From Candidatus Poribacteria bacterium (GTDB lineage Bacteria; Poribacteria; WGA-4E; PCPOR2b): a stretch of 64,000 bases of DNA. The stretch's first letter is position 1. Each line of letters opens with the position of its first letter. A program made the position numbers and the translations under genes. The notes beneath the pieces were generated by a model, which saw only the letters and a list, made by a program, of their open reading frames with translations, was not told where the DNA came from and made no database searches. The DNA lies in the NCBI GenBank assembly GCA_965208325.1, contig OZ242326.1, positions 3,872,001 through 3,936,000 on the forward strand, given 5' to 3'. Of this stretch, positions 14,288-63,558 are shown in pieces.

Positions 14288-14371
14288 GCCGGAGTGGTGA
14301 AATCGGTATACGCACTGGACTCAAAATCCAGCGAGCCTCGGCTCATGTCGGTTCGAGTCCGACCTCCGGCA
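14288..14371 (+). tRNA. tRNA-Leu (CAA); CCA end not encoded
   Basis: Acceptor stem GCCGGAG/CTCCGGC; anticodon arm CTGGA-CTCAAAA-TCCAG; long variable arm; GGTTCGAGTCC T-loop. Upstream TTGTAA-17-TAAGAT promoter-like motif. Confidence 0.95.
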
Positions 14372-54659: not shown

Positions 54660-54911
54660 ATGTTGGGACCGCAGCAGTTGTGGTGTCCTCGCTGCAAGCG
54701 GTACGTGGACACGAAACAAAAGCAAAATAAAGCGGGAAGACATGCCAAATTAGTAAAAATTGTCACGACTTGTGGAAGATGTCGGACAACTTTGTGCAGT
54801 AAGACTACAAGCATTCAGGTGGTTGAACAGATTCAAGCCAAAGCGGTTACAGAGCAAATGCCAAGTGATTCAGAACGGGAGGAAACTGAGAAAAACGGGA
54901 ATGAGTCTTGA
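54660..54911 (+). CDS. Small zinc-ribbon-like protein
   Basis: CPRC...CGRC pair; GGAGG RBS; starts 16 nt after mnmE. Confidence 0.6.
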   Translation: MLGPQQLWCPRCKRYVDTKQKQNKAGRHAKLVKIVTTCGRCRTTLCSKTTSIQVVEQIQAKAVTEQMPSDSEREETEKNGNES

Positions 54912-55222
54912 CCAATTGACCACAGGCAATTGGAATTCCAAACGTGATTATGAGGTATCAGTGGAGGTTTAAGGGTTTATTCAATCCGTACCCAGATCCC
55001 AGATTTGCCTCCAGCAATTAGCCAATTTTGCACCTAAGTAGAATGCAGCCTAAACCCAATAGTTTTCAAATCTCGTCGTGTCGAATTTGCGATAAATTCA
55101 ATATGGAACTAGTTTCTCGTACCGACGCCAAACTTGGAAATTTGCTCACATCGTTTGGACTAGGTAAATAATGATACGTTTAATTCTATAAGTACCAATT
55201 CCAATATCAAAGGAGAATACAG

Positions 55223-56122
55223 ATGTTCAATCGTACTTGGAAGCGGAATCAGCTATCGGTGTTGGTTATCCTGATGTTTACCGCCGCTGCCTATCCGCTG
55301 GCCTTTGCATCAACCGAGATTAAGTGGGAGAAGTCAATTGAGAAGGGAATGATGGAAGCCCAAGAAACAGGTAAACCCATTATGATGGACTTTTACACAG
55401 AATGGTGAGGTTCCTGTAAGCGGCTGGATGCCACTACGTTTAGTGATTCAAAAGTTGTTGAACTATCAAAAAAATTCGTTACCTTGAAGTTAAATCCGGA
55501 GTCAAGCGATGAGCACGCTGAAGCTTACAGGACATACGGAGATGGATCAGGCGCAGTCCCAACAATTGCATTCGTTGACACTGAAGGGAATCCAATCAGT
55601 GTTATTGTTGGTTACAGAGATGCAAAGGAATTTGCCGTGCTTATGGAGGGGACTCTCAAGGAGGAAGAACGGTTTCAGCAACTAAAAATTGAAATCAAAG
55701 AAAATCCAGATGCCCCGATGATTAATGCTGAAATTGCAATCATCTATGTCAAGCGGGGGGACATTGAGAATGGCAAACCTATCGCCGATAAAGTTCTTAA
55801 ACTAGATCCAATGAACAAAACCGGTTTGTTGCCGGATATCCACCTCAACCTAGGATTACATTACGCAACGCATGCTGATGAAGACAACGCGGAAGATTTT
55901 TATCGAAAGGCGGAGACGCACTTTCAAACGGTCATCGAAAAGTACGCACAAAGCACAGTTTATGAGCAGGCTAAGTATCACCTGAGCTTAACCTATGCAC
56001 TTCAAAAAAAGTATCAACAGGCAATCGAACTTCTTGAGACATTGAGCGATTCTAAGAACGAAGAAATTAAGGCAAACGCTGGTGTTTTGCTAGATCGCAT
56101 CAAAACGTTCATTGACGAGTAG
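55223..56122 (+). CDS. Probable selenoprotein: exported thioredoxin-fold (UxxC) plus TPR-like protein, TGA=Sec at 55406-55408
   Basis: Signal peptide, then KPIMMDFYTEW-TGA-GSCKRLD, continuing in frame with no further stop into ORF 55484-56122 (cis-Pro AVPT, TPR helices). Confidence 0.88.
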
Positions 56123-56142
56123 CCTGCACTAACGTCACAATC

Positions 56143-56898
56143 CTAAGTCCCCTGATGATCCCGTGTAGGTTGTGATGCGGGATTAATGTCGTTCTGCAGC
56201 GACTGAACTTCAGCTGGCGTTAGCATTCGGTACTCTCCAAGTGCGAGTCGCCCGAGTTTGAGGCTTCCTATCTGCACCCGTTTCAGTTCAATCACGTTAT
56301 GCCCCACAGCTTTAAACATTCGGCGAATTTGCCGTTTTTTTCCTTCATGAATAACAAGTTTGAATTGTGCTAATTCTCCTTTGCGCCCAATTTGAACTAC
56401 AATCGCAGGTGCAGTGCAACCCCCTACAATTTCAATCCCATCTCGTAATTGCTGAATTGCTTGTTGGCTTGGTTGGCGCTCAACTTGTGCGATATACGTT
56501 TTCTTCACCTCATGGCTAGGATGAGTCAACCTATATGCGAACGCGCCGTCATTGGTCATGAGTAGGAGGCCTGATGTATCTAAGTCCAACCGTCCCACCG
56601 GATATATGTCTTGCGAACTGCCGCGCACAAGTTCCATGACAATTGGACGGCCCCGTTCATCGCTGCGGGTTGTTAGGTACCCCGTGGGTTTATTAAGCAT
56701 CAAGTAAACCCTTTGTGGGTTTCCCTCTACCCGGCTGCCATCAAACTTAATCGTGTCCCGATCCGCAACTATATGTCTACCCGGAACTCGGACACACTCA
56801 TCGTTGACCGTTACCCGCCCCGCTTGAATGTACTTTTTCGAGCTGCGTCGAGAAGCTATGCCGCATTCAGCAAGGAATTTTTCAAGACGCATGGACAT
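56143..56898 (-). CDS. rluB: rRNA pseudouridine synthase (RluB/RsuA family)
   Basis: MRLEKFLA..G.ASRR S4 domain, NKPTG, VGRLDLDTSGLLLMTNDG, EGKKRQIRRM. Confidence 0.88.
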   Translation of the reverse strand: MSMRLEKFLAECGIASRRSSKKYIQAGRVTVNDECVRVPGRHIVADRDTIKFDGSRVEGNPQRVYLMLNKPTGYLTTRSDERGRPIVMELVRGSSQDIYPVGRLDLDTSGLLLMTNDGAFAYRLTHPSHEVKKTYIAQVERQPSQQAIQQLRDGIEIVGGCTAPAIVVQIGRKGELAQFKLVIHEGKKRQIRRMFKAVGHNVIELKRVQIGSLKLGRLALGEYRMLTPAEVQSLQNDINPASQPTRDHQGT

Positions 56899-61935: not shown

Positions 61936-62484
61936 TGATTTCCCCTTTGAACCGGTGTTAACCCATGGTCGCTCGGATTCGCCTATGCCTGCGCAATCAA
62001 ACCTACACCACATCGGAAATTGTATCAAATTGTAACGCTGACCGTCAATGTGTTTATCCCAACGGCCCATCAGCAAATAATTTGGAATGAGGCAATAAAC
62101 TAAATTCCAAACTGCAATCCATCCGACGAACTTAAACATGGTTGCGCCGATTGTCCATATTTAGGCCATAGACTAAAAACCGTGAATTCCCCAGATTTGC
62201 AGAAGGCGATGTGTCCCGAAAGAGGCATTTTTCAACAACCATCGCCTGTGATTGAAAATGATGAGGATTTATCCATGCACTCAAGAAATCTAGCGCCGAC
62301 TACGAGATTAACTTTGATAAAATTCTGTCGGCTTTTGTTCTGTAGATGTTGGTCAAAGAATGCCGTAATGTATTTAATCGCGGGGATGATTCTTCATTTG
62401 CAACTCCATTTGCTGCTGTGGTACACTTTGTACGAGGGGGATGTTCACATTTTAGAGGAAAAATCGGTAGAAAAGGAAAAAAAT

Positions 62485-63558
62485 GTGGTTAGACAATCCA
62501 TTATATTATCAGCCGCCGTGTTAATTTTACTGGTTAGTAATGTGTCAGCTTCGGAGAAAATCGGCGCGCCTAATGCGGGCAAAAGATTCTCAGAAGACCA
62601 CATCATCACAGTATTGCCCTTCGATGCAATCCCCGCAATCAAGGATCCGCGGTTTGTCTCTGCCCGCGAGGCAAAATTGCGAGACGATTCACCGATGATT
62701 GGAGTCAGTTTCAACGGTGAAAGCCATGCCTACTCTATCTATCTGCTTAATGGGCACGAAATTGTCAACGATGTTGTTGGCGGCGTGGAAGTAGCGATTA
62801 CCTGGTGACCACTCTGTCGAACGGCAATCGTGTATAGCCGCGAACTCGAAGGAAAAACGTATACCTTTGGAGTCTCAGGCAAACTGCTTTACGATGCACT
62901 TCTGATGTATGACCATCAAACGCGTTCCCTTTGGTCACATATCACGGGGAAAGCAGTAACAGGGCAACTCAAAGGAAAACAGTTGTCAATGATGGCTGCA
63001 ATGCCGCAAATCACTTGGAAAGAGTGGCGATTAAACTACCCGAACACAAAAGTGCTCTCTGTTCAGTTCGATTCCCGTCATCCGAATCTGAAAATCGAAG
63101 AGCCGAAGTTCGATAGTTATGCAAGATATCGAGCTGGACCCAATGCAGGAATAAGTTCTACACAATATAACGATAACCGTTTACCGAATAAATCAGTCGT
63201 TATCGGTGTGCGAGTCAATGCCCGTTTCAGTGCCTATCCTCTTACAGCGTTTGACAGGACATCCGTTATAAACGATGTCATTGACGGTGTGCCGGTCTTA
63301 GCGTTTCACGACAATGTGTCCGGCGCGGCCGCTGTGTTTATGCGTGCACTGGAAGGGAAGATTCTCACTTTTGAGCCGTGCGGCGGAAATGTTGCCATAG
63401 ATACCACGACTGGCACGCGCTGGAATTTGGTCGCTGGCAAGGCTACCGAAGGAAAACTCAAAGGTAAGACTCTTGACCGAATTCCGGCGATGAATATCTA
63501 TTGGTTTGCATGGGGACGTTACCATCCTGAAACAACCGTCTATCAATTGCCGGATTAG
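62485..63558 (+). CDS. Probable selenoprotein: exported DUF3179-family protein, TGA=Sec at 62806-62808
   Basis: GTG start after AAGGA and a signal peptide; DAIPAIKDPRF, HEIVND, AITW-TGA-PLCRTAIVY, FGVSGKL, MYDHQTRSLWS, YWFAW. The frame is continuous across the TGA. Confidence 0.88.

Follow-up and report, generated by a model that had tools for sequence, protein, structure and literature searches.

A fragmented gene in Poribacteria predicted to encode an exported thioredoxin-TPR selenoprotein

The locus and its reading frame

We analyzed a 64,000-nucleotide stretch of a Candidatus Poribacteria bacterium genome (hereafter the window; contig OZ242326.1 of assembly GCA_965208325.1, positions 3,872,001 to 3,936,000 of the forward strand), and within it a gene at window positions 55223-56122 on the plus strand, which the list of open reading frames (ORFs) divides into two pieces in the same frame, 55223..55408 (61 aa, ATG start) and 55484..56122 (212 aa, TTG start). 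Retranslation of the whole interval with TGA read as selenocysteine (Sec, U) gave a single 299-residue protein, the sole non-standard codon of which is the TGA at 55406-55408, corresponding to U62 in the context MMDFYTEW-U-GSC-KRLDA. A first-pass annotation of this DNA had described the two pieces as sharing a frame interrupted by that TGA alone, and the retranslation bears this out. Judged from its sequence, 55223-56122 is best read as one gene for an exported selenoprotein that joins a thioredoxin domain to a tetratricopeptide repeat (TPR) domain, a reading to which we give a probability of about 0.9. The parts of the gene are as follows.

55210..55215, plus strand: Shine-Dalgarno-like AAGGAG, 7 nt 5' of the ATG, a putative ribosome-binding site
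55223..56122, plus strand: the whole selenoprotein gene, 299 codons and a TAG stop, its full length kept in orthologues
55223..55309, plus strand: predicted Sec-type signal peptide, residues 1-29, with putative cleavage after A-F-A
55325..55651, plus strand: thioredoxin-fold domain, DsbD-gamma-like, residues ~35-143 (Pfam PF13899, PDB profile and structure matches)
55406..55408, plus strand: predicted Sec codon UGA (U62), a conserved in-frame TGA
55406..55417, plus strand: redox motif U62-G-S-C65, with the U/C62 column and C65 invariant in the orthologue alignment
55415..55432, plus strand: TGT AAG CGG CTG GAT GCC, codons 65-70, with frozen synonymous sites
55419..55435, plus strand: mini-hairpin resembling a selenocysteine insertion sequence (SECIS), loop UGGAU at 55425-55429
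55559..55561, plus strand: codon of P113, at the thioredoxin cis-proline position, invariant in 35/35 sequences and putatively the cis-Pro
55715..56116, plus strand: TPR domain, seven helices, residues ~165-298 (Pfam TPR_2/TPR_8, AlphaFold2 model, 2xev_A match)

Conservation of the in-frame TGA

A search with the read-through protein recovered, in 39 of 41 related genomes (G000, the genome of the window, included), an orthologue that has a single in-frame TGA. We extracted 35 orthologous loci, 20 from this search and 15 fetched additionally, and in all 35, which range in protein identity from 90% to 34%, the TGA occupies one and the same column (W/Y/S-U-x-x-C). The downstream half of the gene is free of stops and frameshifts and is conserved as protein down to the same 34% identity, and AAGGAG or AGGAG lies within 20 nt 5' of the start in most of the 35 loci.

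Searching the phylum, we obtained matches at E<=1e-25 in 158 of 176 genomes, comprising 28 of 28 genomes of family f1 plus G000, 11 of 11 of f3, 6 of 7 of f4, 111 of 112 of f2, and one of 17 genomes from other families. Within the main Poribacteria order, this query detects the gene in 157 genomes out of 159. Among the matches listed, which include the best match of 147 genomes, that best match holds one TGA in 147/147, two of the 147 additionally showing a TAG where the alignment ends on the C-terminal side; the sole listed match free of a stop is a second match in G140, which starts at query residue 67, past the Sec column. The best matches of the other 11 of the 158 matching genomes lie outside those listed, and two of these genomes (G028 and G057) were seen with the TGA separately, G057 belonging to a different order and likewise having the TGA form. 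Assembled reads agree at 55406-55408: contigs of four runs from four studies, sponge metagenome labels among them, each span 55150-56150 in one piece at a depth of ~20-28 and show 10 differences from the window, 0 of them at the TGA, with two of the covering runs (X1 and X5) possibly being the source of the window DNA.

Homologues with cysteine in place of Sec were also recovered. Named genome records yielded 80 loci, 60 with TGA (57 titled Poribacteria and 3 'uncultured bacterium') and 20 with TGC or TGT. These 20 Cys loci (L116, L118, L120-L134 and L136-L138) lie outside Poribacteria and have TGC/TGT in the aligned column in 20/20 cases; their sources are Phycisphaerae/Planctomycetales, Armatimonadota orders, Ignavibacteriota, Zixiibacteriota, Eisenbacteria, one Spirochaetes metagenome-assembled genome (MAG) and two unnamed MAGs. 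Judged by alignment, the Cys proteins of other phyla are true homologues, and the two forms make up a Sec/Cys pair. A profile search of solved structures likewise aligned U62 with the first Cys of WCGPC (2kuc_A) and of WCVAC (DsbD-gamma, 4ip1_A). In a quick, unrooted IQ-TREE maximum-likelihood tree of 102 distinct rows (115 before identical sequences were dropped), the 82 Sec rows form one side of a single branch with a Shimodaira-Hasegawa-like approximate likelihood ratio test (SH-aLRT) value of 95. One Sec/Cys change explains the distribution.

Two observations on gene copies and their surroundings stand apart from this comparison. G028 holds two copies of the gene, L054 (G028:C32) and L055 (G028:C12). 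In the L054 copy, the first Met is not followed by a signal peptide and Ser replaces Trp before the Sec position (D-S-U-Y-W-C); the TGA and the frozen nucleotides past it are retained, and the TPR region at the C-terminus is longer and duplicated in part. In Zixiibacteriota, the Cys-form gene lies between two glycine-cleavage P-protein subunit genes (L130, L133 and L137), with gcvH and the first P-subunit gene upstream and the second P-subunit gene downstream in L133 and L137; the second P-subunit gene is downstream in L132 as well.

Selenocysteine machinery and genetic code

The genome (4.71 Mb, a single contig) encodes the full set of components for which we searched, namely selA, selB, selD and tRNA-Sec with anticodon TCA, all with scores that exceed curated cut-offs. 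Matches to selA (588.7 bits) and selB (373.5 bits) and a tRNA-Sec (77.5 bits, anticodon TCA by ARAGORN) that directly adjoins selB form one cluster at G000:C1:2041509-2044983. The selD gene (376.8 bits) lies at G000:C1:4481278-4482201 on the minus strand and itself has one in-frame TGA, in the motif C-A-G-U-A-S-K; this TGA (2397-2395 of locus L001) is followed, from 12 nt past the UGA, by a perfect hairpin, GAUCC-GGG-GGAUC, of similar geometry to that described below. TGA also serves as an ordinary stop in the window, where it ends the Jag, PdxJ and PALP genes and 7 of the 31 ORFs of at least 250 aa. TGA is not reassigned in this genome.

One further tRNA and one further TGA-containing frame were noted in the window. 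The tRNA at 14288-14371 on the plus strand (84 nt) is the sole Rfam match in the window, at 56.7 bits, and scores 40.3 bits on the tRNA-Sec model (G000:C1:3886288-3886370), under the 47-bit threshold; it is probably a tRNA with a long variable arm and not a second tRNA-Sec. The second in-frame TGA lies at 62806-62808 inside the open frame 62104-63558 on the plus strand, in the context ITW-U-PLC, and a DUF3179 domain covers ~62623-63534 of this frame (Pfam PF11376, E 2e-79). Of 21 related genomes, 20 have a match to the DUF3179 protein, and a TGA, counted at any column, is present in the majority of the closer ones. DUF3179 with UxxC/T already appears in the selenoprotein inventory of PMC13188914, as far as the accessible part of that paper goes, and the frame is probably a member of this known selenoprotein family and another fragmented gene call.

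A SECIS-like element after the UGA

The 18 nt at 55415-55432 hardly vary among the Sec genes, even at synonymous positions. Within these genes, codon identity is 33/35 for TGT, 29/33 for AAG, 34/34 for CGG, 35/35 for CTG, 32/34 for GAT and 35/35 for GCC. Normalized codon entropy is 0.36 over the 8 conserved columns of residues 63-72 versus 0.82 over 53 other conserved columns (Mann-Whitney p = 7e-4, a value that overstates the case, the sequences being kin). These codons can fold into a hairpin with a stem of A-U, G-C, a C.A mismatch, G-C, G-C and C-G, that is, five pairs and one mismatch, and a 5-nt apical loop, UGGAU, that begins 16 nt past the UGA; the minimum free energy (MFE) is -7.7 kcal/mol. 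The three pairs of the core GGC-UGGAU-GCC are kept in 35/35, 35/35 and 34/35 sequences. Beyond it, the stem is extended by a C-G pair in 23/35, and in the lineage of the window by G-C and A-U beyond the C.A mismatch (13-15/35).

The bacterial SECIS (bSECIS) model, as given in the accessible part of PMC13188914, calls for 3-9 nt in the apical loop and 4-16 bp in the upper stem, with a G within the first two loop positions that is often followed by G or U, a distance of 16-37 nt from UGA to loop, and an MFE <= -7.5 kcal/mol. The window hairpin falls within all of these constraints, marginally for spacing (16 nt) and energy (-7.7 kcal/mol); the second nucleotide of its loop is G, and another G comes next. 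Folding beats synonymous-codon nulls in 72 of 82 Sec genes (median z -0.88, with 21 below -1.64) and in 10 of 20 Cys genes (median z 0.03). Other lineages have long hairpins of -15.2 and -18.2 kcal/mol (z -2.6 and -2.9), and the lower stems change register between lineages. The frozen synonymous sites are the main support for a SECIS-like element. At gathering thresholds, Rfam gave no match at the selenoprotein locus, and around the gene there was no excess of sigma-70-like promoters (4 sites versus 2.7 expected) and there were 0 intrinsic terminators.

Recoding and its alternatives

The first-pass annotation had taken the TGA for a Sec codon, and this reading is supported by the conserved TGA column, the Cys homologues, the Sec machinery and the frozen downstream nucleotides. 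It had also expected gene callers to report the gene in fragments, which is how it appears in the public protein collection, as 212-aa C-terminal pieces or as short-contig calls with W at the TGA. The latter are six proteins (P0008 and P0010-P0014) from contigs of 1-2 kb with W at the Sec position (W-W-G-x-C), and the other seven public matches are C-terminal fragments of 189-214 aa. The W-bearing calls would be products of gene calling under a code in which TGA is Trp.

This same splitting by gene callers, together with a public collection that holds mostly 212-aa fragments, is what would be expected of a pseudogene or of an assembly or sequencing error, in which the TGA would have arisen lately by nonsense mutation or through a base-calling mistake. 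We give that explanation next to no credence given a TGA in the same column at 35/35 loci and in 147 listed genomes at identities down to 34%, an intact downstream half, and agreement among contigs of four runs from four studies. It is also exceedingly improbable that UGA acts as a true stop, with a 61-residue peptide followed by a separate 212-residue TPR protein from TTG 55484, although this matches the table-11 reading: the 61-aa product would be a signal peptide and one third of a thioredoxin fold, and the 212-aa piece, beginning partway through the thioredoxin domain, would not be preceded by a signal peptide. Protein-level conservation also runs through the 25 codons that separate the TGA from TTG 55484 (with C65, L68, A70 and T72 invariant), and the Cys homologues are single chains. 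Reading of the UGA as Trp, Cys or Gly, by near-cognate suppression or a changed code, would account for the W printed at this position in the six public short-contig calls. Yet TGA ends ordinary genes of the window, the full Sec machinery is present, an element with SECIS geometry is conserved 3' of the UGA, and homologues have the catalytic Cys in this column, at which Trp or Gly would leave no working active site; we consider such read-through very improbable.

Several points nonetheless weigh against the Sec reading or temper it. The window hairpin is small, shuffled sequences fold with energies just as good (z -0.01 and +0.75), and the four genomes of this genus score z ~+0.2 against synonymous-codon nulls. 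The UGGAU loop has no N1-N2 closing pair, a feature of the most common bSECIS loop pattern. Covariation gave no meaningful signal: on 35 sequences, RNAalifold returned three invariant apical pairs with 0 compensatory changes, and the six-pair version showed no convincing covariation on the same number of sequences (2 single cells). Two of the 41 related genomes, G025 and G033, gave weak thioredoxin matches in the orthologue search and no orthologue was found in them, yet both carry selA; their assemblies are fragmented, at 95% and 91% completeness. A co-loss of the gene and the Sec machinery was looked for in these two, and there was no such signal, selA being present. The relatives are kin, and counts such as 35/35 and 147/147 overstate independence. 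The neighborhoods of the gene give no functional hint. Sec incorporation is predicted from sequence, and the direction of catalysis, the link to DsbD and the role of the TPR domain from analogy.

Domains and structure

The first-pass annotation had also proposed a secreted UxxC oxidoreductase with a TPR-like module, and a signal-peptide-like N-terminus and Pfam matches to Thioredoxin_7 and TPR families support this. The N-terminus has basic residues K7 and R8, an 18-residue hydrophobic stretch and then AFA|S. Thioredoxin_7 (PF13899) matches residues 35-119 (E 2.7e-18, 66.3 bits versus a cut-off of 27), the Thioredoxin_2, Thioredox_DsbH and Thioredoxin models likewise score above their cut-offs, and TPR repeats are recognized within residues 170-285 (TPR_2, 30.5 bits with a cut-off of 27; TPR_8, 30.2 bits with a cut-off of 25.7).

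AlphaFold2, run on the 35-sequence alignment, gave a model with a mean-confidence (pLDDT) value of 91.4 and a predicted template modeling score (pTM) of 0.81. Its N-terminal helix 4-23 is of low confidence and detached from the fold; strands follow at 53-57, 86-90, 114-118 and 124-129, U62 stands directly before helix 63-72, and a long helix (134-160) leads to seven helices at 165-298 with pLDDT above 90. C65, L68, A70 and T72 are invariant in the alignment, as is P113 (35/35), which sits before strand 114-118 and by this position would be the cis-proline typical of thioredoxins. Between the two redox residues stands the dipeptide G-S/F/W/Y.

Comparison with solved structures returned separate relatives for the two domains. 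The PDB profile search gave 2kuc_A (E 7.8e-20) and DsbD-gamma 4ip1_A (E 8.2e-15), and VIA-align of residues ~30-150 gave 3f9u_B (Z 16.2), DsbH (15.5), the DsbD-gamma 1vrs_D (15.5) and 2kuc (14.8). For residues 154-294, VIA-align found the Xanthomonas YbgF/CpoB TPR domain 2xev_A (Z 15.2, root-mean-square deviation (rmsd) 2.0, 120/121 residues aligned), a score to be read in light of structural matches at Z ~15 being common among helical repeats, and the sequence profile matched E. coli CpoB at E 7e-8. For the whole model, Foldseek ranked E. coli YbbN first (3qou, E 2.8e-7, 291 columns) and its Salmonella homologue (3qdn) second. Whole-chain superposition on these matches gave a template modeling (TM) score of 0.29-0.31, an rmsd of 20-21 A and an identity of 14-16% (21 A and 14% for YbbN), and in the model it is domain order alone that is common to this protein and YbbN/CnoX.

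Gene neighborhood

Upstream of the gene is yidC-jag-mnmE, and on its other side an rluB-like gene faces it in convergent orientation. In other loci, mnmE is upstream (L052) or an rluB-like gene lies alongside (L041). Of the 116 ORFs that flank the 20 Cys homologues, 68 were scanned, and no Dsb or Ccm genes were found among them. An ORF of 83 aa (54660-54911, plus strand) with no Pfam match separates mnmE from the selenoprotein gene and is followed by a non-coding gap of 311 nt (54912-55222).

Proposed function

At UGA62, a strongly supported reading of the sequence is that SelB with Sec-tRNA(Sec) would bind the small hairpin with the UGGAU loop and insert selenocysteine. The Sec-type signal peptide would direct the chain to the periplasm and be cut after A29. 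In the mature DsbD-gamma-like domain, the model suggests that Sec62, exposed where helix 1 begins, would make the attack and that C65 would be the resolving residue, the pair presumably cycling between a selenol/thiol form and a selenylsulfide form. The CpoB/YbgF-like TPR domain, after the long linker helix, may by analogy pick the substrate or partner. The protein would then be a periplasmic selenol/thiol-disulfide oxidoreductase.

The redox context of the genome bears on the direction in which such an enzyme might work. The genome has a single full-length DsbD frame of 627 aa, with DsbD_TM and a gamma domain, and this gamma domain is 36% identical to the selenoprotein over residues 23-141. 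A DsbA-like Thioredoxin_4 gene directly adjoins a VKOR gene (G000:C1:273369-274272), and DsbB was searched for in the genome and not found; oxidative folding probably runs through a DsbA-VKOR pathway. Since the DsbA-like gene adjoins VKOR, the oxidizing branch is already staffed. Compared with thiols, selenols have a lower pKa and exchange faster, and selenylsulfides are more stable than disulfides; fast reductive or isomerizing chemistry would therefore be favored. By analogy, we put at even odds that the protein works in the reducing branch of thiol chemistry in the envelope, as a reductase or isomerase that the single DsbD of the genome keeps reduced.

Other functions have been weighed against this one. 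A DsbA- or DsbC-like role as oxidase or isomerase, in place of that of a reductase fed by DsbD, would suit the G-S/F/W/Y dipeptide, which is nearer the CGYC of DsbC than reductase motifs, and the failure of the genome search to find a DsbB. We hold it doubtful, though worth keeping in mind: the DsbA-like gene beside VKOR already supplies an oxidizing pathway, the nearest relatives in sequence and structure (DsbD-gamma and the C-termini of DsbD-like proteins) are electron carriers of the reducing branch, and no DsbC-type dimerization domain was seen in the AlphaFold2 model. It is quite improbable that the protein is a cytochrome c maturation reductase, uniting a CcmG/ResA-like thioredoxin with a CcmI-like TPR binder of apocytochrome. 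Here the evidence in favor is that 3f9u_B (Z 16.2), which ranks first among the structural matches of the thioredoxin domain, carries an annotation as the C-terminal domain of an exported protein related to cytochrome c biogenesis and that TPR domains of CcmI bind apocytochrome, set against the absence of Ccm/Ccs genes beside this gene or, in the flanking ORFs scanned (68/116), beside the Cys homologues, and against scores of just 12-14 bits for the NCBIfam DsbE and ResA models.

A periplasmic chaperedoxin like CnoX/YbbN, in which the TPR domain holds unfolded or over-oxidized envelope proteins and Sec rescues their cysteines, is suggested by the two top Foldseek matches (YbbN 3qou, then 3qdn) and by the shared layout of thioredoxin plus TPR. 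It seems unlikely to us in view of the TM score of 0.29-0.31, the rmsd of 20-21 A and the identity of 14-16%, which leave domain order as the one thing in common, of the cytoplasmic location of CnoX as opposed to a signal peptide here, and of VIA-align placing single-domain matches (DsbD-gamma and YbgF) above any two-domain match. A more specific form of this idea, a selenium-based periplasmic chaperedoxin with a CpoB-like TPR groove that captures damaged or unfolded envelope proteins while Sec rescues over-oxidized cysteines, is speculative and decidedly unlikely; we think equally little of the chances that Sec has been fixed, seemingly with no reversion to Cys in the genomes read, owing to the oxidant-rich, oxygen-fluctuating tissue of sponges. 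Were the chaperedoxin view true, the protein would be a core stress-defense factor of the symbiosis and the first selenoprotein in which a chaperone and a redox domain are fused. The DsbD-fed reductase or isomerase remains the function that we prefer for this selenoprotein.

Significance

The gene is mis-annotated across a whole genome group, and no NCBIfam model covers the protein. Its near-universal presence in the main Poribacteria order, with Sec wherever the position is readable, points to a steady need for selenium in envelope redox chemistry. The host bacteria are sponge-associated, and they have kept the gene in its Sec form. With the Sec form in one clade versus the Cys form elsewhere, the family offers a clean natural pair for asking what selenium brings to a periplasmic oxidoreductase.

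Comparison with known systems

Thioredoxin-fold UxxC proteins are the commonest kind of bacterial selenoprotein, and recoding itself is for that reason unsurprising here. For this protein, no NCBIfam model reaches its cut-off, and the best matches, to the DsbD-like C-terminus of TsoB and to DsbD, are far under theirs (TsoB NF045694, 69 bits against 805; NF041199, 30.1 against 300; VPGUxxT type 2 NF041383, 29.4 against 275). In a full-text literature search, neither a thioredoxin-TPR selenoprotein nor a selenoproteome of Poribacteria was found described. The inventory table in the accessible part of PMC13188914 holds many thioredoxin-fold selenoproteins, and in that part, supplements aside, 'TPR', 'tetratricopeptide', 'Poribacteria' and 'sponge' each occur 0 times. 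Sec-containing hydrogenases in Poribacteria appear in excerpts of a 2026 paper, and selA and selB in symbiont bins in excerpts of a 2017 sponge-metagenome paper. The protein is in all likelihood an unannotated thioredoxin-fold UxxC selenoprotein, and a fused TPR domain was not found described for any selenoprotein in the literature searched.

Among selenoproteins, the 'Thiol:disulfide interchange protein' family of PF13098 UxxC proteins in the PMC13188914 inventory likewise has a thioredoxin fold with a UxxC motif, which in the present protein is U-G-S-C, and PF13098 scores 50.9 bits here with a cut-off of 27. It differs in that PF13899, of the same clan, scores higher (66.3 bits) and that a TPR domain is fused, a comparison made by description only, from the accessible part of that paper. 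NF041199 (Trx7/PDZ) and TsoB (NF045694) are likewise selenoproteins with Thioredoxin_7 or DsbD-like domains and are the best NCBIfam selenoprotein matches, whereas NF041199 is of the CxxU type, in which Sec is the second of the two redox residues.

Among solved structures, those nearest to the thioredoxin domain are DsbD-gamma (1vrs, 2fwe and 4ip1) and the exported DsbD-like proteins 3f9u and 2kuc, with E from 8e-15 to 8e-20, Z of 15-16 and an rmsd of ~2 A, U62 corresponding to the first Cys of their CxxC. Unlike DsbD, the 299-residue protein stands alone, with its own signal peptide, a TPR domain and Sec for Cys; Pfam found no DsbD_TM match in it, and the DsbD_TM of the genome is at another locus. 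For the other half, the TPR domain of CpoB/YbgF (2xev and 6g5s), a periplasmic TPR module, is the best structural match of residues 154-294, although CpoB has a coiled-coil N-terminal domain and no redox domain. The order of an N-terminal thioredoxin domain followed by a TPR domain is that of CnoX/YbbN. CnoX is a cytoplasmic protein and is not known to have a CxxC pair, whereas the protein described here is predicted to be exported and has a UxxC motif.

The Cys homologues are an uncharacterized family for which the database searches made here found no name. They have the same parts in the same order, namely a signal peptide or lipobox, a thioredoxin domain with DFYTDW-C-x-W-C-K-x-LD and then a helical TPR-like domain, with lengths of 238-352 aa in those uncut by a contig end and identities of 26-41%. 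They differ from the Poribacteria protein in having Cys instead of Sec and in the nucleotides after the motif, which vary freely.

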